Below, piece by piece: positions 1 to 20,047 of a DNA stretch of 35,465 nt. The stretch comes from a virus. The notes under the pieces are model-generated. The model was not told where the DNA came from. It did not search any database and was given only the letters and a program-made list of their open reading frames with translations. Each line of letters begins with the position of its first letter. Within the stretch, counting starts at the first letter, position 1. Made by a program: the position numbers and the translations under genes. The DNA is taken from UHGV virus genome UHGV-1465456. One strand, written 5' to 3'.

Positions 1-46
1 TGAATAGCGATGACCTCATCTACCGAAAGGAATGTAATCTCAGTCA

Positions 47-460
47 TTACTTATCTTCCAGTTTTTTTATGATGTCCGCATGCTTGGTCTGAGTATGTTG
101 CAGAGCTTTGATAAATGACTCAGACACGCCCTGCAAAGCAACTGCTGCATTAGTGGCCTTCATCATAGTCTGGCGAGCCTCATCAGACTGAAGAAGGGCA
201 TCCAATTGCTTAGTAAGCTTCATGACACCCTCCGTTATCTGTGGTGACAAATTCGATGCAATTAATTGCGCAAGATGCGTGTCTATTGTTTTCGCAGATG
301 TTTTTACCTCATCTGCGGAAGCGATTTCATCAACTGATTTTGCACTGATGACAAGGTCGGGCTTTCCGCGCTGCGTAACTGTGACGCTTTCACCAGAGCG
401 TAAACAGTCCAGCGTTGCAGATAAATCCGATCGCATTTGCGTGTAAGTAATGATTTTCAT
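47..460 (-). CDS. Phd/YefM-like antitoxin-domain protein with long helical C-terminal extension (ORF 47..478; likely start MKIITYT at 460)
   Basis: N-terminus MKIITYTQMRSDLSATLDCLRSGESVTVTQRGKPDLVISA resembles Phd/YefM antitoxin fold from memory; RBS-like AGAGGG upstream; lower GC than flanking tail genes. Confidence 0.5.
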   Translation of the reverse strand: MKIITYTQMRSDLSATLDCLRSGESVTVTQRGKPDLVISAKSVDEIASADEVKTSAKTIDTHLAQLIASNLSPQITEGVMKLTKQLDALLQSDEARQTMMKATNAAVALQGVSESFIKALQHTQTKHADIIKKLEDK

Positions 461-470
461 GGCACCCTCT

Positions 471-484
471 CTGTACATGTACAG
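471..484. promoter_or_regulatory. 14-bp perfect palindrome CTGTACATGTACAG just upstream of the Phd-like gene; candidate autoregulatory operator
   Basis: Palindrome read directly in sequence, 11-24 nt upstream of the start codon at 460 on the minus strand. Confidence 0.35.
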
Positions 485-542
485 ATTAGTGCATAATAAA
501 AACGCGAGATCAACGATTATTGATGTTTAAGGATGCGGATCA

Positions 543-893
543 TCATTTCACCTTCACGCAGTCGTATGTTGCATACTGACGCGGCGCATCCATGCTGGCT
601 TGCAACCACTGTGCGTTGAGAATGGCTTTGCCGTTGCGCTTGATGTACTCAAGCCCAACCCAGCGGCCGGGTTGGTCGGTTGCAACCATCCATTCTGCTT
701 TCATGTTTTGGTAGTCATCTTTAGACTTGAGAAAAGACATTTTTTGCGTTTCAGGTTTTACCCCGTTAATAAGCATTAGTCCTTCTTTGCCCGCAGTGAG
801 GCGATACGGCCCGCACTGAGTATCAGCTAAGGCCTCTGACGTGCCGACAACTGATAAAAGAACACCACAAATTAGAAGTTTGGCCTTACCCAT
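543..893 (-). CDS. small secreted protein with Sec-type signal peptide, unknown function (ORF 543..953; likely start MGKAKLL at 893)
   Basis: N-terminal MGKAKLLICGVLLSVVGTSEALA hydrophobic core with AxA cleavage motif; two Cys in mature part; start abuts stop of upstream tail gene. Confidence 0.5.
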   Translation of the reverse strand: MGKAKLLICGVLLSVVGTSEALADTQCGPYRLTAGKEGLMLINGVKPETQKMSFLKSKDDYQNMKAEWMVATDQPGRWVGLEYIKRNGKAILNAQWLQASMDAPRQYATYDCVKVK

Positions 894-894
894 C

Positions 895-1959
895 TTATAC
901 CTGCCATTTTTTAAGCGTGTCCTGACTAACCATTTCACGAGCACCACGCGCAAAACACATCAAATCCATGTACCACGCCTGACCTCTGGTGTCGCCAGTA
1001 TAGTCGATAGCTTTGACGATATAAACGCCATCCGTCGCAATGCTGGCAGCCTGTGACGTCGTGCCGGTCAGCACACGGTTGCCGTTCTCTTCTGTTTCGG
1101 TGATACGCCCGGGCGACTGTGCGATTTCGCTATTGCCGAGCGCGGCGCGGTACACCGAAGCCTGATCGAGCTGGATAAGACCATTAATGCGGATGTTCGG
1201 GTTTATCAGGCACCGCACGTTTACGCCGCCGCCCATCGTCTGTTGCGGCATACCGATCAGGCCAGTATCGGCATTCAACACAATGGCTTCGTGAATATAT
1301 TTATCTTCAGGCACCATCTGGACCTGACCATCCACCAGTTGCCATGTCGCTTTGCACTGCGCAGCAATATTATCCATCACGTTACGGGTGGATGAATAAA
1401 TCGCACGGCCACGAGGAAACACGGTATCAGGAAAGTCACCGGTAATGCCCTGCGTCACGCCGAACGCGTTGAAATCCTGCATAGTCGCCCGGTGCAGGTC
1501 CGAAACGGTATAACCAGCGGCAAGCGTGGTGATGGTAGTCGCGTAGAGGAACGCTTCGTGGTTACTGATGGCCTGAATCAGCACCCAGGAATCGGTGATG
1601 TTGTCCTTCCCGGTGACGGTGAAGCGAATATCACCGTCAAATATCAGGCCGTAGTTCTGACCGTTCACCTGCCCTACCTGGTCTGGTGAAATCTCCCGGG
1701 CGACACCAACCTGGCTCGCATCAACATCCGGCGCTATACCGTCATATCCGGCAATGATGCGAATTTTTGCAAACTCCTGCCCCAGTATCTTGTTCGTGGT
1801 ATCGGTCGAAAGGTTGTAAATTTTCACGTTCGCCACTCGCGGCCAGCGTGTATCTGCCCACTCGATCTGGAACGTGACCTTAAAATCAGACAGGGAAACG
1901 CCCTGCCCGTTCTGGTCCAACAGTTGCAGCTCAAAATGGCGCATCCAGTTAAGAGACAT
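895..1959 (-). CDS. phage tail/baseplate protein (354 aa), possibly hub-like
   Basis: Long ORF in minus-strand tail operon downstream of tape measure; function inferred from position only. Confidence 0.45.
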   Translation of the reverse strand: MSLNWMRHFELQLLDQNGQGVSLSDFKVTFQIEWADTRWPRVANVKIYNLSTDTTNKILGQEFAKIRIIAGYDGIAPDVDASQVGVAREISPDQVGQVNGQNYGLIFDGDIRFTVTGKDNITDSWVLIQAISNHEAFLYATTITTLAAGYTVSDLHRATMQDFNAFGVTQGITGDFPDTVFPRGRAIYSSTRNVMDNIAAQCKATWQLVDGQVQMVPEDKYIHEAIVLNADTGLIGMPQQTMGGGVNVRCLINPNIRINGLIQLDQASVYRAALGNSEIAQSPGRITETEENGNRVLTGTTSQAASIATDGVYIVKAIDYTGDTRGQAWYMDLMCFARGAREMVSQDTLKKWQV

Positions 1960-1961
1960 TT

Positions 1962-2267
1962 CTACTCCTGCACGAAAATGAGGTGGCTGTATGTGCCGAG
2001 GTTGGTTTTGGTGGGCTCGTCCGGTGCGCCTACATCGCAGCCAACGAGCAGCGCCCCGTTAATACCTAGTTGAGGATATTGCTCAAGAAGATTTACACCG
2101 GTTACCAGCGGCACGCCAGAAAGAAGCGGTTCGCCACTGCTATCTTGTACATCCAGAATCCAGCCAGCAGAATCACGCCAAATGACTCTCAGCGTGTATG
2201 TTGTCTCTGCTAACTGAATGCGAAATAGCTGGTTATCCGGCGATAAAGGGATTTCAGTTACATTCAT
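1962..2267 (-). CDS. phage tail protein (101 aa), unknown role
   Basis: ORF tightly packed in tail operon, start overlaps upstream stop. Confidence 0.45.
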   Translation of the reverse strand: MNVTEIPLSPDNQLFRIQLAETTYTLRVIWRDSAGWILDVQDSSGEPLLSGVPLVTGVNLLEQYPQLGINGALLVGCDVGAPDEPTKTNLGTYSHLIFVQE

Positions 2268-2890
2268 TGGATACCTATAGAGTTACCAAGTCTGGTTCCT
2301 TTTAGTCCATCAAACCACCCTGTTGACTTAATTACCGATTCATTTACTGGGGTGGTGGATTTCATCCCGGAATTCTGCACCGCCGATGTGCTGACGCCAT
2401 CCTGCATATCTGATTTATCTGCAACGCTAACGCTCTGCGTCTGCGACATGATCACTTCACGCAGGGTAAGCGTGCAGTTCAGCACGTTCTCGCTGGTTTT
2501 ATCCGTTGTCACCTCGATGGCTCGCACCAGCATATTGCTGTAAACCCGCTTTCCGGTCACTACATCGAACGGCACCCGAGAGGACTGGAGATCCAGTAGT
2601 TGCTGATAGGTCTCTTTCGGGCTAAGTCCGGCGCTGAGGCCGATTGACGATGTATCAATGAAGTCCAGCAACGAACCGCCACCAGCGAAGCCGCATTCCA
2701 TTGTGACTTCGCTGGGGCGCTTATACGCATGATCGGCGATGAAGCCCGAAGCGCTATTCGTTGTTGGCTTCTCCACCGGGTGCTCAGTAATTTCGAGCGC
2801 ATCAGAATGCTTTTCGGAGACGACCACGCTGGGGATCAGCAGGCCAATTCGCCGGGATTGCTGGCGAAAAATAGCGGAGAGAATATCCAT
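2264..2890 (-). CDS. phage tail protein (208 aa) downstream of tape measure
   Basis: ORF in tail operon, ATGA-type overlap with tape measure end. Confidence 0.5.
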   Translation of the reverse strand: MDILSAIFRQQSRRIGLLIPSVVVSEKHSDALEITEHPVEKPTTNSASGFIADHAYKRPSEVTMECGFAGGGSLLDFIDTSSIGLSAGLSPKETYQQLLDLQSSRVPFDVVTGKRVYSNMLVRAIEVTTDKTSENVLNCTLTLREVIMSQTQSVSVADKSDMQDGVSTSAVQNSGMKSTTPVNESVIKSTGWFDGLKGTRLGNSIGIQ

Positions 2891-4893
2891 TAGCTCGGCA
2901 CCGTTCGAAGTTGTTGAGTTAGTTGTGAATTAACGTTCTTCTGCCGCTCAACTGTGATATTGGCAGCCTCACGTGGATCAGATACACCGTGAATATTAAT
3001 AACCGTTTCTTGCTGTATGTTTTGTGAAGCACCGCCACCAGCGGCCATACGAACCAATTCACTTGGGTAAGGGTTTCTCCCGTTCTCATGATGGATAATT
3101 CCATTCATCAGAGAGGACATTACCTGCGGATCTTTAAGGTTGAGAATGGCATCAGGAGCCACACCCATCATTTTCGATAACTGAGCAATGTAAGCACCGG
3201 TATTATTTTCATTCCCCGGTGCCCACGTAGAGATTATATCGTTAAGGGTTTGCAGCGGCTTGCCTGTCGTCTTACCTTCAAAGTAGCGCATTAATTGTCG
3301 GGAAAGCGCTTTCAGGCCATCATAGGCAGTTTCAAACCGGGCGAACCTGCCGCCAGGCCTTTCGAGCGTCGCCCCAGATTGCCCACGAAAGTCGATATTA
3401 CCGGGGTTATTATTTCTAATACCTCGTGGAGCTTTAGCAGACTGGGCATGTTGGTCAGGCTCATCATCACCGAACCAGCCGCGCACCGTTCGGCCCACGC
3501 TGCGAGGATCGAATCCCCAGTGCTCTTTAATCCAGTCGGCGGTACCGTTGGCGCTATCTGTTACCATCGGCATCGCTGACGGATTTTCGCTGCCCTGATT
3601 TAGCAGCTGTTTGCCTATACTAGCGGCCTGCGCCCAGTTGCCATCTTTTATGGCATTCAGCAAATCAGCGATCATGTTCAGCATCTTGCCGAACTCACCC
3701 ATTTGCGAAATGAAGTTGCTAAAATCCCACTTTAGGGACCATGACTTGGGGTCAATACCGAGCAACTTAGCCAGCGCTTTTGTCAGGTCCGTAACAGTCT
3801 TTTTCAGGTCACCAATCATTTTGACGGCCTGATCAATTTCAGTCTTCCATTTCCCCCAGTCAATCAGGCTTTTGCCACCTTCTTTCCACGTCTGGTAATC
3901 ATCCAAGAGCAGACCAAGTGCAATAATAAGCGTCGTTATCATGCCCAAGGGTGATGACATGAAAGCGGTATTTAGCAGCCGCCATGCAACCAACAGCCCA
4001 CTGAACAATGCGATAAGCTGCTGCGTGGCTGGGTTCAGCTTTTTGAACCAGGCGATCACACCCTCAACAGCTTGCCCAGTTCGCCATAACACGCGGGTAA
4101 TCGCGTCACCTGCCCAGAGAATTCCTTTGATGATCTTCGTGATGACCGCTTCAATCTTCGGCCAGTTGTCGAGTATCTGCCTGCGGAAGTTATCAATACT
4201 GCCAGCAAGGCCACCAGCTAGGTTAGAGCCAATCTTGTCTTTCGCCTGTCCAAGCGTCATCGTCAGATTACGCATGGAGGTCATGAAAATATTGGACTGT
4301 TTAGCCGCTGACTCAGCATTAAAACCAATACGCTTTGCCGTCAACGCGTACTCAGAACTGAGCTGCCCCATCCCTCTGCGCATCGCCATCAGCGTGTTTT
4401 CATCGATGCCAAGCATCTGCGCGTATTGTTTCGCGCGGTAATACGGCATGTTGTTGAGCTTTTGCCCAACGCCAGTAAAGATGGCCGCAGTATCACGCAT
4501 CTTTCCGCTGGCATCGCGGGTCTGTACGCCCAGACGGTTCAGGAACCCTTCCGCCCCCGGATTGCTACGCATGAAACCAGCCAACCCTTCAAGAGAGGAC
4601 ATGGCCGACTCGGCGCTGGCACCGGTTTGCGATGCGGCATAGCCCAGCGCTTTGATGCCCTGGACGCTGGCCCCCGTCCGCTGGGATGCCCAGTAAATTT
4701 TATCCAGACCATTCGCGATCTGGGTGGTAAATCCGACAATGCTAAGCGCTGAGCCTTTCACCACCGCGCCGACCTTCAGAACGTTCGCGGTAACGCCTTT
4801 CAGCACGGCTTCAAACTTATTAGCGCCAGCCTGATCGATATCGAATCCCAGCGAAACAAGGAAGTCTTTAATCGTATCTGCGTTACCGCTCAT
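2890..4893 (-). CDS. tail tape measure protein (667 aa) with conserved C-terminal domain (RNNNPGNI motif)
   Basis: Size, position after tail chaperone, Gly/Ala-rich helical N-terminal half, hydrophobic central segments; C-terminal domain identity not resolved. Confidence 0.7.
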   Translation of the reverse strand: MSGNADTIKDFLVSLGFDIDQAGANKFEAVLKGVTANVLKVGAVVKGSALSIVGFTTQIANGLDKIYWASQRTGASVQGIKALGYAASQTGASAESAMSSLEGLAGFMRSNPGAEGFLNRLGVQTRDASGKMRDTAAIFTGVGQKLNNMPYYRAKQYAQMLGIDENTLMAMRRGMGQLSSEYALTAKRIGFNAESAAKQSNIFMTSMRNLTMTLGQAKDKIGSNLAGGLAGSIDNFRRQILDNWPKIEAVITKIIKGILWAGDAITRVLWRTGQAVEGVIAWFKKLNPATQQLIALFSGLLVAWRLLNTAFMSSPLGMITTLIIALGLLLDDYQTWKEGGKSLIDWGKWKTEIDQAVKMIGDLKKTVTDLTKALAKLLGIDPKSWSLKWDFSNFISQMGEFGKMLNMIADLLNAIKDGNWAQAASIGKQLLNQGSENPSAMPMVTDSANGTADWIKEHWGFDPRSVGRTVRGWFGDDEPDQHAQSAKAPRGIRNNNPGNIDFRGQSGATLERPGGRFARFETAYDGLKALSRQLMRYFEGKTTGKPLQTLNDIISTWAPGNENNTGAYIAQLSKMMGVAPDAILNLKDPQVMSSLMNGIIHHENGRNPYPSELVRMAAGGGASQNIQQETVINIHGVSDPREAANITVERQKNVNSQLTQQLRTVPS

Positions 4894-5122
4894 TGGCCGC
4901 TCTCCATTTATCTACCCGGGCGTCGTTATCCTCGCGCATGTCGAGGTAGTCATTGAGAAGCGCGATACGGCAGAGGTCTACCGCACCGCTGTTAAGGTCT
5001 TTCTGGTCAATATGGAAGGCAAGCGCCGGACGAAGAATAAAGTCTTCACCGCCCGGCAGGCTGTTGAAGGTTATTCCGCTGGCGGGGTGGGCGTCTCGCT
5101 GGTAGGGAGTCCTTGCAAAAAA
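4883..5122 (-). CDS. predicted -1 frameshift extension of tail assembly chaperone (lambda G/GT-like); slippery T_TTT_TTG at 5116..5122
   Basis: Heptamer T TTT TTG in the chaperone zero frame; -1 frame stays open about 80 codons to TAA at 4883-4885, overlapping tape measure start. Confidence 0.45.
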   Translation of the reverse strand, partial: FFARTPYQRDAHPASGITFNSLPGGEDFILRPALAFHIDQKDLNSGAVDLCRIALLNDYLDMREDNDARVDKWRAANER

Positions 5123-5496
5123 TTTCCCAGCGAGTCGGCGACCACCCGCGCCACCAGTTGCAGCATGGTAAGCAGGTCGATATCGTCAAACGCCATTTCG
5201 CCATGCTGGCAGACCGGCACCCAGCCTTTCATGTGCTCGCGTGAAACAACGGAAAGGCAGGGGAACAGGATAGCGTCAACGTCGCCATCGCTCAGATCGG
5301 ACACAGCATTGGCAATCTTTGGCAGGATGGTAGCCATCGCGCCTTCGGTGTCTTTGCTGCTGATCTTCTCCTGAACGCTCCGGAAGTCAGAAACCATCCC
5401 GGCCAGAACCGGCAACAGCTTGCGGGACACCTTCAGCTGTTCGAAAACGCTGAGCTTTGCGGTGCGATATTTCACGCCTTTAATTTCGAATTCCAT
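5071..5496 (-). CDS. tail assembly chaperone (141 aa)
   Basis: Position between tail tube and tape measure; acidic small protein; associated frameshift signal. Confidence 0.55.
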   Translation of the reverse strand: MEFEIKGVKYRTAKLSVFEQLKVSRKLLPVLAGMVSDFRSVQEKISSKDTEGAMATILPKIANAVSDLSDGDVDAILFPCLSVVSREHMKGWVPVCQHGEMAFDDIDLLTMLQLVARVVADSLGNFLQGLPTSETPTPPAE

Positions 5497-5499
5497 GCG

Positions 5500-5940
5500 T
5501 TAAAACTCCCCGAGAAGCTGGTCAATCTTGCCGCAGTCGAATACCCAGGCGACGGTTCCGCCCTCTTTAGCGTTATTGAAATCAGGCTGTTTCTGGAATG
5601 CACACGAACGCGCAGTAGAAATATCACCCGATGCCGTGTTGCGAATGACGATCACGTTATTGCCCCAGGTGGCAGAGGACTGGCTTTGCGCGTTATACGC
5701 CAGAGACAGCTTTTTATTCACCGGGGAGGTTTTGAGTAGCGTCACCGTAATGGTGCCTGACTTATCGGCGTGCAGGCTGTGCATCACCTCGCCGTCGGCA
5801 CCGATGGTCATGGTGTTTTTGTTGCCGCCCATGGTCTGGGTGATACCTTCCTCAGAGTTCGCAGAACCCTGACCAAGATCGATAACGCCGGTCGGCCCGG
5901 TGAGCGACGCGGTTACATCGAGAAAAGAATAAGTTGCCAT
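5500..5940 (-). CDS. tail tube protein (146 aa), putative
   Basis: Position immediately downstream of sheath-like gene. Confidence 0.5.
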   Translation of the reverse strand: MATYSFLDVTASLTGPTGVIDLGQGSANSEEGITQTMGGNKNTMTIGADGEVMHSLHADKSGTITVTLLKTSPVNKKLSLAYNAQSQSSATWGNNVIVIRNTASGDISTARSCAFQKQPDFNNAKEGGTVAWVFDCGKIDQLLGEF

Positions 5941-5950
5941 TTATCGCTCC

Positions 5951-7111
5951 TTAGCGAACCACGTTGATCTGCACATCGGCGTAATGAACTGCGCCAGCCA
6001 GCTTACAAGCCACCTGGATTAACGGCGCTTTGCGTGCTTCTCGGTCAGCCTGTGCTTGCTCGGAAAGAGGTTGCGCATACACGTAATAACCTTTTGTCAG
6101 CGTATCACCGGAATTCAGTTGCCCGATAGGGCCACCATTCCACACGCCAGCCGCTACCAGACCGTTCGTGACGGACTGATCCATGGACTGTTCAACGTTG
6201 GAAAGCAGACGGGTCACACCGGCATCAGTCTGCGGAATTTTGGTGGTGCTGGTGTAAAGCAGGTTATAGAGGTTGGTCTGAACGTAGTTCTGCAACCAGT
6301 CGAGCCCGTGGCGCTCGTCGAAGAAGTCACCGTTCGCCATGACACCCTGTTGCAGGATCGCCGTGTCGTTGGCGTAGTACACGAACACGTTCGCATTCTT
6401 CGCATCCACAGCCGCCGCCTGTCCTACCGTCAGCGTTTCGTAGGTTACGCTCGGTTCCTGTTTGAATTTCAGGGTAATGGTGGTATTGCTGCCGTTGAAA
6501 TTGACAGTAAACGCGCGACCGAAAGCTGAAACCGCCGCATAAGGGCTGCTGGTGGAATATTGAATAAAGGTACGGGAATACTTACCGGCCTTTAATTTAG
6601 ACGCAACATCGGTCGTCGAAGTCGTGCTGATGATCTCAGCGTCGGCTGACGTTACCCCGAAAATGCGGCTCAGGCTGGACGCTTCGATGAGTTTAGCAAC
6701 CTCAATCACGTCGTCAGCATCAAGCACATCATCGCCATCAGCAACATCATCAGCGACAACCAGCCCATACCAGTTGGTATACTGCAGGCAGGCATTAACA
6801 GCTTGCACGATGGTTTCCACGCTTCCACCTTCGGAAGAGGTCAGCGTCTTCGCCCAGCGGCCAACATAAACCTGCGTCGGCTTCGGCGACTGGCTGAAGA
6901 AAACCTGCGCCGCTTCATATTCCGGGCTGTCGACTCCGAAGTCCTCGCCAATGTCATCAACGGACGCATAAAGGCGAACGCGCTCCTGCACCGGAATGAC
7001 AGTGGAAGAACCGAGGATCAGCAGTGCGCCGAAGTTACGACCAGTAGCCGCTTTCGGCGAGATGATCACATCAACGTTTACAACGTTGGATACAGGTAAG
7101 CCCTGCGTCAT
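5951..7111 (-). CDS. tail sheath-like protein (386 aa, DUF3383-like), putative
   Basis: Size and position upstream of tube/chaperone/tape measure; family assignment from memory only. Confidence 0.5.
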
Positions 7112-7114
7112 AGT

Positions 7115-7720
7115 TTATTCTCCAAAAAAGGTGACTGGCGCTTCCACCAGCGATTTAATGCCGTACTCGCGCACGACCTTCCGGCGCAGGCGCACCGTCA
7201 TGTCGTAGCGGCGAACCCATTGCTGGTTGATAAGTTCGGGGAAAGGGGTCAGACCGGTATAGTCGCCCAGAGACAAACCAAGCGCGTTCAGCTCAGCATT
7301 GTTTTGCGGGACAGATATGCCATCGCGAAAACGGGACGCATAAGACATACCAGCCGGGCCATAGAACGACGCCATGCACTCGAACGTTTCATGCCGCCAG
7401 AGCTGAGCGCCCTCGTCGGTCTGATTGGTGAATGCAGGACTGTTATCAATGGGCCACCCGGTAACGCCGAACGCACACCAGTTCGTTTCAACTGACGGTA
7501 GTGATGGCTGTTCTTTCTGCCAGCGCGGGCGAACCATCCCCGCAGGCAAGCCGGAAACATTGCGCATCCATCGGCTTAGCAGCCTGTCGAGCGCTTCGTC
7601 ATAATCAGGATCGCCGCTGGTGGGTGTCAGCCAGCCGCGCTCTGTGCTGGTGTTATTGCTCAACGGGAGTTCCCCCATCAAACGGCAGTAATTCGCAATG
7701 TGCCTGGACAAAGCCAGCAC
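7115..7720 (-). CDS. phage structural protein (201 aa), head-tail joining or tail completion; true start may be internal (about 7678)
   Basis: ORF in structural operon; first Met overlaps upstream gene by 68 nt. Confidence 0.45.
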   Translation of the reverse strand: MLALSRHIANYCRLMGELPLSNNTSTERGWLTPTSGDPDYDEALDRLLSRWMRNVSGLPAGMVRPRWQKEQPSLPSVETNWCAFGVTGWPIDNSPAFTNQTDEGAQLWRHETFECMASFYGPAGMSYASRFRDGISVPQNNAELNALGLSLGDYTGLTPFPELINQQWVRRYDMTVRLRRKVVREYGIKSLVEAPVTFFGE

Positions 7721-8042
7721 CGTAAGCCGTGTACGGGTCGACGAATGTCACACGATAATCACGGTTCTGGTACGTCACGATATCGGCATCACGGCCAGTC
7801 TGCCCCTGCGTCAGCCGCTCAGTTGTCACGATGAGAATCGCGCCACTGATAACCTGGCCGGACTGCATACGTCGGTTTTCGAGAGAGCGGTCAACGGTAA
7901 CAACTCCGGCAAACTGCGTTTTAACTTCGCTGTCGCTGCCGATCCCGTCCTCGTCCACCGTTTGCGCGCGACGCGTTACCCACAGGTTGAAGTCGCAAAA
8001 ATCGGGGTCAAAAAGTACGTCCGTCACATCAAGATTCGGCAT
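7653..8042 (-). CDS. phage structural protein (129 aa), unknown
   Basis: ORF in structural operon. Confidence 0.45.
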   Translation of the reverse strand: MPNLDVTDVLFDPDFCDFNLWVTRRAQTVDEDGIGSDSEVKTQFAGVVTVDRSLENRRMQSGQVISGAILIVTTERLTQGQTGRDADIVTYQNRDYRVTFVDPYTAYGAGFVQAHCELLPFDGGTPVEQ

Positions 8043-18481: not shown

Positions 18482-18949
18482 TTATTTCAGGCATTGCGTC
18501 CTGATGTACTCCTGCAGGTAGTTAACCTGCGCGGTTATCTTGTCGATTCCACTTCGGAGACGGTAATAATTGAGTTCAGCATCTGCTGTAAGTCTTGGGC
18601 TTTCTCCATCGCCCATGCCGCTGGCTCCGGTCGTTGACTTTGCACAGGTGGCGGCGACTTGCAGCCGCTTACGGCCAGCAATGACATCGCTATGCAGACG
18701 CTCAATGGTTTCTTTCGCATCAGCCAGTTCTCCGGTGTATTTGGCATCCAGTGCAGCGACATCACGCTGGCGGGTCTGCATGTCTTTAATGGTGGCGGTC
18801 GCCAGGAGGAGTTTCTCAGTGGCCTTATCGCGCTGGTCTCTGTAAGTGATGGCGTTGTCGCGGTAGTGGTTCACGAAGAAAGCCAGTGCGCCGATTAACG
18901 CCAGCACCAGCAACTGCAGCCAGTAACGCTTAACCAGTGCGCTAATCAT
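18482..18949 (-). CDS. Rz: i-spanin Rz
   Basis: Strong recalled similarity to lambda Rz ([11 protein letters not shown]...[13 protein letters not shown]); N-terminal TM segment. Confidence 0.85.
18535..18720 (-). CDS. Rz1: o-spanin Rz1 lipoprotein embedded in Rz in +1 frame (start at MRKKPLSV)
   Basis: Embedded ORF with lipobox LLAVSGC and Pro-rich mature part. Confidence 0.7.
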
Positions 18950-19891: not shown

Positions 19892-19967
19892 TGGTGCCGG
19901 TTAACGGATTTGAACCGCTACCTATTCACTTACAAGGCGACCGCTCTACCATTGGAGCTAAACCAGC
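19892..19967 (-). tRNA. tRNA, anticodon UGU by manual folding (Thr)
   Basis: Manual cloverleaf: 7-bp acceptor stem, 4-bp D stem with GG in loop, anticodon loop CUUGUAA, T loop TTCAAAT, encoded CCA. Confidence 0.65.
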
Positions 19968-19972
19968 ATGTT

Positions 19973-20047
19973 TGGCGGGACAGCGTGGACTCGAACCACG
20001 ATAAGAAGGTTAACAGCCTTCCGTAATGACCTTTATACGACTGACCC
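19973..20047 (-). tRNA. tRNA, anticodon GUU by manual folding (Asn); one acceptor-stem mismatch
   Basis: Manual cloverleaf: anticodon stem GAAGG/CCUUC, loop CUGUUAA, T arm CGTGG-TTCGAGT-CCACG, encoded CCA. Confidence 0.55.

Follow-up and report, generated by a model that had tools for sequence, protein, structure and literature searches.

A probable Phd-Doc operon with a long-tailed antitoxin in the baseplate region of a temperate myovirus

The virus genome UHGV-1465456, a stretch of 35,465 nucleotides (nt) which was analysed as a whole and is referred to here as the window, carries at its left edge, on the minus strand, a gene for a small protein with an N-terminus like that of Phd/YefM antitoxins, a long C-terminal extension and a perfect palindrome upstream of its start. 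The question raised by this locus is whether the gene constitutes one half of an autoregulated toxin-antitoxin operon, with its partner just beyond the end of the sequence, and what such an operon might do amid phage tail genes. Our preferred answer, to which we assign a probability of about 0.86, is that the window edge carries the promoter-proximal half of a two-gene type II Phd-Doc operon, present as a moron between the baseplate hub and gpV spike genes of a temperate myovirus. The result mainly confirms annotation, since both proteins are already so named in RefSeq; what is added is a corrected start codon for the toxin, a comparative case for TGTACATGTACA as the operator, and a description of the differences in site spacing and antitoxin length that mark the subfamily. 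The element is ordinary in kind; with a long antitoxin tail confined to its lineage and with operator hexamers that abut, it is of mild interest as a variant and comes as no surprise.

The antitoxin and its Doc partner

Loci related to that of the window were collected from complete Escherichia coli genomes, from one genome per GTDB species and by exact-protein look-ups. The full toxin gene was taken from the E. coli prophage ECONIH5 (locus L001), which is 99.7 % identical to the window, and it encodes a protein of 135 amino acids (aa) that is held in RefSeq as a death-on-curing family toxin (WP_001515094.1), with a Phd/YefM antitoxin (WP_001515093.1) upstream. The protein scores well above the cut-offs of TIGR01550 (81.3 bits, cut-off 38.65) and PF02661 (45.4 bits, cut-off 24; expect value (E) 1.5e-11) and it matches phrog_577, a family described as "Doc-like toxin" (E 1.5e-33), as well as the P1 Doc structure 3k33 (E 7e-20) and the Enterococcus faecalis Doc chain 9vzc_A (E 3e-10), while PADLOC gave weak candidate-family matches only. 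Residues 65–73 of the L001 copy form the Doc-type Fic motif HAFNDANKR, which conforms to HxFx(D/N)(A/G)NKR and is identical in the complete Doc partners that were read (n = 12) except for that of Gilliamella, where it reads HAFMDANKR. Moreover, doc lies downstream of the antitoxin gene in every full locus examined. As judged by these comparisons the partner is clearly a Doc (Fic-fold) toxin; a first-pass annotation of the window had suggested that a toxin might lie just beyond the edge. The possibility that an ordinary tail or fibre gene follows instead was checked in L001, where the downstream gene is doc.

The start codon of the toxin required correction. The ATG at 19–17, from which the partner had been thought to begin, does exist, in a frame that stays open up to the edge of the window, but in L001 it opens a 51-codon open reading frame (ORF) that lies out of frame inside doc, and it was rejected as the toxin start. 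The doc gene starts instead at 47–45, where its ATG overlaps the stop codon of the antitoxin gene (TAATG at 49–45).

The assignment of the first gene product as a Phd/YefM-type antitoxin is supported by sequence comparison and by a structural model. The protein is identical to WP_001515093.1 and is present on 506 contigs of a large collection, where PF02604 is listed for it and for nearly all its relatives. Comparison of the family alignment with P1 Phd by hhalign gave a probability of 92.5 %, for residues 1–45 only, and P1 Phd chains were the best matches in a phmmer search of the PDB. In an AlphaFold2 model, residues 1–38 have a predicted local distance difference test score (pLDDT) of about 85 and superpose on the N-domain of P1 Phd (4zlx_A) with a root-mean-square deviation (rmsd) of 1.1 Å over 38 columns at 37 % identity; Foldseek returned P1 Phd chains as 12 of the 13 best matches, the remaining one being YefM. 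Among 21 family members R10 is invariant and R31 nearly so, and P1 Phd also has arginine at both positions, which correspond to the arginines that YefM requires for DNA binding (PMC4803016). These comparisons confirm the Phd/YefM-like N-terminus reported at first pass. The antitoxin matched no PHROGs family and was without a match in PADLOC.

The length of 137 aa, starting at position 460, is backed by the homologues, all of which begin MK(T/I)(I/V)TYTQ, by the Shine-Dalgarno-like AGAGGG at 465–470, a purine-rich counterpart of which was found in all relatives of the locus, and by alignment of the first residue to residue 1 of P1 Phd. A 143-aa version, starting six codons earlier at the ATG at 478 and generated as a mechanical ORF, was rejected; its extension is unconserved and its ATG lies within the palindrome.

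Both phd and doc are under strong purifying selection. Across genera, ratios of non-synonymous to synonymous substitution (dN/dS, Nei-Gojobori) are 0.02–0.05 for doc and 0.07–0.19 for the whole of phd, with 0–0.09 for codons 1–40 of the latter. These values bear on the possibility that the pair is a decaying, non-functional remnant, a view which could draw on some Xenorhabdus loci with a truncated antitoxin or no detectable doc ORF (L006, L011 and L014) and on the rarity of the module in E. coli (five of 5426 complete genomes). Against such decay stand, besides the selection on both genes, the intact state of window-type genes, the retention of the Doc catalytic motif, and the conservation of the promoter-like site, the putative operator and the terminator described below, and we consider it highly improbable.

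The palindrome and the promoter-like site

The perfect 14-bp palindrome CTGTACATGTACAG noted at first pass does lie 11–24 nt upstream of the antitoxin ATG (471–484); its length had been underestimated, for it extends to 16 bp (470–485). It is the one perfect palindrome of at least 14 bp in the window, and since dinucleotide shuffles of the window yield 2.5 ± 1.7 perfect 14-bp palindromes its existence alone lies within chance. Its significance stems rather from its position and from its conservation across genera. All 12 loci that encode a full-length antitoxin (36–100 % protein identity) carry the same 12-nt core, TGTACATGTACA, at 15–27 nt before the start codon. These loci derive from E. coli (two types), Serratia (two), Klebsiella, Pectobacterium, Pantoea, Xenorhabdus bovienii, Enterobacter mori, Morganella, Lelliottia and Gilliamella. 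By comparison, the 45 nt upstream of the core have a mean pairwise identity of 42 % and a minimum of 16 %, and synonymous sites between the loci are close to saturation or past it (dS 0.5 to above 2).

The core consists of two abutting copies of TGTACA, which is the operator core of YefM; in yefM-yoeB two such cores lie 12 bp apart, overlap the -10 sequence and are footprinted by YefM (PMC1802561). TGTACA is also present in the P1 operator, where the TATAAT of the phd promoter is directly followed by TGTGTACACA, with a second site, GAGTACAC, 13 bp further on. At the window locus the palindrome likewise abuts a -10-like hexamer. In the relatives the sequence directly upstream of the core has the consensus TGnGCTAAnC, and TTG(C/A)T(C/A) occurs in the same register, 17 nt further up, in the six tail-slot loci. 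Taken together with the analogy to these systems, the position, content and invariance of the palindrome support the earlier proposal that it is the autoregulatory operator of the antitoxin, and we infer this as a prediction. A second operator was not found, in that the 82-nt intergenic region holds no further TGTACA-like site. Within the window TGTACA occurs 8 times, compared with 5.3 ± 2.2 in shuffles, and the copy just 3' of doc in L001 is not conserved.

Two other explanations of the palindrome were considered. It could have arisen by chance, at the frequency given by the shuffles, or it could act at the level of RNA, as a 5' untranslated hairpin affecting mRNA stability or translation, given that, if transcribed, it could fold into a stem of 6 bp closed by a 4-nt loop, immediately upstream of the Shine-Dalgarno sequence. 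We consider both very unlikely. An invariant core, without a single compensatory change among the 12 loci, fits protein-DNA contact and not an RNA stem, and the core matches the recognition element known for this protein fold. Moreover, in Xenorhabdus loci that have lost the Phd domain, the palindrome has decayed, to CTGTACACATACAG in L011–L013, or is absent (L009 and L010), and this loss alongside the DNA-binding domain also counts against a role other than operator.

The palindrome might also be read as a LexA (SOS) box, through which the cassette would be induced by DNA damage along with the prophage. The LexA box of E. coli is CTGT-N8-ACAG, with the outer C and G essential for LexA. The outer bases of the palindrome do read CTGT...ACAG, but their spacing is N6 rather than N8, and the outer C and G differ from locus to locus (Morganella has ATGTACATGTACAG, three loci have CTGTACATGTACAA) while the inner TGTACATGTACA is invariant, which leaves this as the least probable of the readings weighed here.

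A further perfect palindrome of 12 bp, GCAATTAATTGC, lies inside the antitoxin gene at 258–269; it is unconserved in five related loci and is probably due to chance. The features of the locus are listed in Table 1.

Table 1. Features at the left edge of the window (positions within the 35,465 nt)
Feature	Position	Strand	Basis or remarks
Antitoxin gene (Phd/YefM family, long form)	47..460	minus	137 aa + stop codon; protein MKIITYTQMR...KKLEDK
Phd-type dimerisation and DNA-binding domain (predicted), codons 1–38, strand-helix-helix-strand-strand	347..460	minus	pLDDT ~85; Foldseek match to P1 Phd
Variable, indel-rich linker (codons 39–56, pLDDT <50) and three predicted helices (57–68, 73–91, 93–110), codons 39–112	125..346	minus	Alignment and AlphaFold model
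Most conserved segment, SFxKALQHTQTKHAxIIKKLEDK, codons 113–137; putative Doc-binding, neutralising helix	50..124	minus	Conservation, dN/dS, Xenorhabdus truncations
Shine-Dalgarno-like AGAGGG	465..470	minus	4 nt between its end and ATG; read from sequence
Perfect 16-bp palindrome TCTGTACATGTACAGA, predicted antitoxin operator	470..485		Core 472–483, two abutting TGTACA hexamers
-10-like hexamer ACTAAT, preceded by TGc	485..490	minus	Family consensus TGnGCTAAnC
-35-like hexamer TTGATC, 17 nt upstream of ACTAAT	508..513	minus	Consensus resemblance only
doc 5' end, ATG 47–45, 15 codons + 2 nt, reads MTEITFLSVDEVIAI...	1..47	minus	Remainder off window

The C-terminal region and the proposed mode of action

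The unusually long helical extension that had been described for the antitoxin is borne out by the structural model, in which the C-terminal ~90 residues form helices at 57–68, 73–91, 93–110 and 114–136 (pLDDT 50–73). In the family alignment conservation is strong in two blocks, residues 1–38 and the last ~25, with twelve invariant residues between F116 and K137 among the 21 antitoxin sequences, and dN/dS for codons 113–137 is 0.03–0.08. Between the two blocks, residues 39–56 form a segment of variable length that is disordered in the model; further on, an S72-P73-x3-E77 motif is conserved, S72, P73, E77, Q85 and S92 are nearly invariant, and codons 41–112 show dN/dS of 0.16–0.46.

The C-terminal ~90 residues gave no match in Pfam, in a sequence search of the PDB or with Foldseek. 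When 1.84 billion cluster representatives were scanned in full by HMMER with residues 46–137, only 10 proteins matched, all belonging to the antitoxin's own family, and no fusion of the region to other well-known domains came to light. On the evidence of these searches the region is lineage-specific and occurs only in a small Enterobacterales family.

Natural domain losses in Xenorhabdus species provide a clue to its function. In L009, L010, L012 and L013 the antitoxins are only 56 aa long (at about 5983–6153 in L009), the Phd domain having gone, and they lie beside an intact Doc; what they retain corresponds roughly to residues 80–137 of the family. These truncations suggest that the last ~55 residues are the neutralising part of the antitoxin. 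Because the last 25 residues are the most conserved, show the lowest dN/dS values of the extension and are retained in the 56-aa versions, we infer that the C-terminal helix (~113–137) is the probable Doc-neutralising element, to which the one or two helices before it may also belong. In Xenorhabdus hominickii (L014, 5959–6159) the N-terminus that precedes the conserved, Doc-binding-like C-terminal segment is unrelated to that of the family, MDNKLFSRLTESMAQMNEMI..., and a script search found no doc ORF of at least 80 aa downstream; this could reflect domain shuffling or decay.

The S-P-x3-E-G sequence of the antitoxin superficially resembles the inhibitory-helix motif of the class I Fic pairs VbhT-VbhA and FicT-FicA, in which, similarly, a small helical antitoxin whose gene lies upstream inhibits a Fic-fold toxin. 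However, the class I motif is (S/T)xxxE(G/N) (PMC3667792), whereas the Ser and Glu of the antitoxin are five residues apart, not four (S72-P73-x-x-x-E77-G78), and Doc is without the second arginine of the Fic signature, which is the target of the inhibitory glutamate (HAFNDANKRTAF). Because the spacing is off by one and the target arginine is missing, the candidate was rejected and the pair is not filed as a class I Fic system.

Doc of P1 is reported to phosphorylate EF-Tu and arrest translation, and Phd to bind Doc and act as repressor of the operon (PMC13034048). By analogy with P1 Phd-Doc and YefM-YoeB, the antitoxin of the window would dimerise via residues 1–38, bind the palindrome and block RNA polymerase at the -10 sequence and transcription start, while its conserved C-terminal helix (~113–137, possibly with the helices of residues 73–110) would fold onto Doc and block it. 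Free Doc would phosphorylate EF-Tu and thereby arrest translation. The antitoxin would be the labile partner, so that loss of expression would free Doc and the pair could serve as an addiction or abortive-infection device.

Several observations weigh against the Phd-Doc interpretation as a whole. The antitoxin falls marginally below the curated Pfam and TIGRFAM cut-offs, with 28.5 bits (E 1.4e-6) against a gathering score of 29.8 for PF02604 and 20.2 bits against 20.8 for TIGR01552, and of doc the window itself holds 15 codons, the rest having been read from the 99.7 % identical locus. The pLDDT of the C-terminal region is low, at 60–73, and hhalign detected no similarity between residues 46–137 and the Doc-binding tail of P1 Phd. 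A scan for a strict sigma-70 consensus reported no promoter here and the -10-like hexamer carries C in place of the expected critical A; because of the outcome of the scan the promoter stays putative, resting on the conserved arrangement TTGnTC-17-(A/G)CTAAT. The TGTACA cores lie 6 bp apart, centre to centre, as against 12–13 bp in the systems studied, and the stoichiometry of binding may therefore differ from that of the model systems. Finally, the proposed binding, neutralisation and toxicity draw on P1 Phd-Doc and YefM-YoeB rather than on members of this subfamily.

Comparison with known systems shows how far the analogy extends. P1 Phd-Doc (3K33, 3KH2 and 4ZM0; M95666) shares the order of an antitoxin gene followed by an overlapping toxin gene, the Phd-fold N-domain (36–37 % identity over ~40 residues), a homologous Doc with HxFxDANKR, a TGTACA-containing palindrome abutting the -10 sequence, and a temperate phage as carrier. 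It differs in that its antitoxin has 73 aa rather than 137 and its operator two sites ~13 bp apart rather than one composite site of 12–16 bp, and in that P1 is a plasmid prophage, whereas the module described here lies inside the baseplate block of an integrated myovirus prophage. YefM-YoeB of E. coli and Axe-Txe have the same N-terminal fold, arginines 10 and 31, and a TGTACA operator overlapping the -10 sequence (PMC1802561, PMC4803016), but their toxin is a RelE-fold ribonuclease, their hexamers are 12 bp apart centre to centre and their antitoxins have ~83–92 aa. Phd-Doc of Enterococcus faecalis resembles the window system in having a Doc-family toxin and a single palindromic operator recognised by the antitoxin; unlike the latter, its antitoxin has an AbrB/MazE-like beta-dome as N-domain and neutralises through toxin dimerisation (PMC13034048). 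Both the spacing within the operator and the length of the antitoxin distinguish the subfamily from the two textbook systems.

These differences allow a more far-reaching, and doubtful, proposal, namely that the Enterobacterales family is a distinct Phd-Doc subtype in which two sites have fused into a 12-bp element and a conserved helical insert of ~75 residues comes between the DNA-binding domain of the antitoxin and its Doc-binding helix, giving a geometry of repression and toxin sensing unlike the conditional cooperativity of P1. With cores 6 bp apart the fused sites would place dimers on roughly opposite faces of the DNA, or cause them to compete. The pair would then have a non-P1 architecture, in which the ~75 extra residues constitute a functional module that might act as a sensor, provide a second contact with Doc, or serve as a spacer letting Doc bridge dimers on the opposite faces of the overlapping TGTACA sites. 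In favour of this view, the cores are more closely spaced than the 12 bp of YefM and the 13 bp of P1, the middle region is itself under purifying selection and retains its five nearly invariant residues, the C-terminal region is confined to 10 representatives among 1.84 billion, and the E. faecalis system shows that architecture varies within the Phd-Doc family (PMC13034048). The length variation and modelled disorder of residues 39–56 speak against it, as does the retention of Doc in Xenorhabdus beside antitoxins that have lost residues 1 to ~80, and it is equally possible that a single dimer reads the whole palindrome. On balance we think a non-P1 architecture rather unlikely, and prefer the Phd-Doc operon set out above. 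Phd-Doc serves as a model for conditional cooperativity, and a variant whose half-sites are fused and whose linker is long would nevertheless offer a natural test of the way in which geometry sets that behaviour.

Genomic slot, distribution and possible role

The window represents a temperate myovirus, with PHROG matches to sheath, major head, portal, terminase, spanin, Ant, a DnaC-like loader, a CI-like repressor and RecT. Read leftwards along the minus strand, the genes of the window and L001 are ordered as tape measure, Dit-like baseplate protein, plug, hub (354 aa), a 116-aa signal-peptide protein, phd, doc, a terminator, the gpV spike, and then further baseplate and fibre genes. The Citrobacter phage Omnitron is 95.3 % identical to the window over 944–8000 and carries the same slot without phd-doc, while the right junction, TTTTTTTATGGGGTTTTTATGCCAATTCC, is common to both phages. 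The interval between hub and spike looks like an exchangeable moron slot. In Omnitron it is occupied (L015, 3200–3586) by an unrelated 128-aa signal-peptide gene that has its own terminator and no PHROG match.

An intrinsic terminator lies 3' of doc in the relatives examined. The antitoxin gene has a guanine-plus-cytosine (GC) content of 44.7 %, compared with 52.1 % for the tail genes at 895–4893 and 50.2 % for the whole window, in line with the lower value on which the suggestion of a moron had originally been based. The cassette fits the definition of a moron because the content of the slot differs in a 95 % identical phage, because it has its own promoter-like site and terminator, and because of its lower GC content. 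The terminator of L001 (5598–5617), which separates doc from the gpV spike gene at a point just beyond the left end of the window, is a strong one, and it is kept in all tail-slot loci; given its place within the tail and baseplate block, late transcription would have to read through it.

A caveat on moron status arises from the distribution of the cassette. The same slot holds phd-doc in prophages of Serratia, Klebsiella, Pectobacterium and Pantoea, with antitoxin identities down to 49 %, and because it does so in five genera the cassette is an old resident of the phage lineage. More distant relatives of the cassette occupy other places: in L005, L007 and L017 they were seen in a second slot, in other prophages, flanked by a Q-type antiterminator and by the lysis (holin/endolysin) genes; in L008 lysis genes follow the cassette and the upstream side is lost at the contig end. 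In Morganella (L004) the cassette has a non-phage chromosomal neighbourhood, near cytochrome bd-like and Lrp-like genes. A tblastn search of the INPHARED phages gave no match to the antitoxin.

In the lysogen the cassette most likely contributes to prophage retention, to abortive defence against other phages, or to both. Under the more far-reaching and doubtful proposal made above, the persistence of the cassette among the baseplate genes of a single myovirus lineage, in at least five genera, might point to a function linked to the life cycle of the phage and not to simple addiction. A literature search for this module, or for an anti-phage role of prophage Phd-Doc, yielded nothing specific and no experimental work on the subfamily. 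The conserved placement in the tail-gene block could be used to ask whether the cassette protects the lysogen from other phages or the prophage from loss.

Two neighbouring features were also recorded. The 116-aa protein encoded at 543–893 on the minus strand, directly after the baseplate hub, has an N-terminal signal peptide (MGKAKLLICGVLLSVVGTSEALA/DTQCG...) and belongs to phrog_3443, a family of unknown function; its position is kept in the Omnitron, Serratia, Klebsiella and Pectobacterium relatives, which places a secreted protein amid a tail operon. Elsewhere in the window, genes for tRNA-Thr(TGT) at 19892–19967 and tRNA-Asn(GTT) at 19973–20047 lie on the minus strand near the lysis genes, among them that of an Rz-like spanin (18482–18949).

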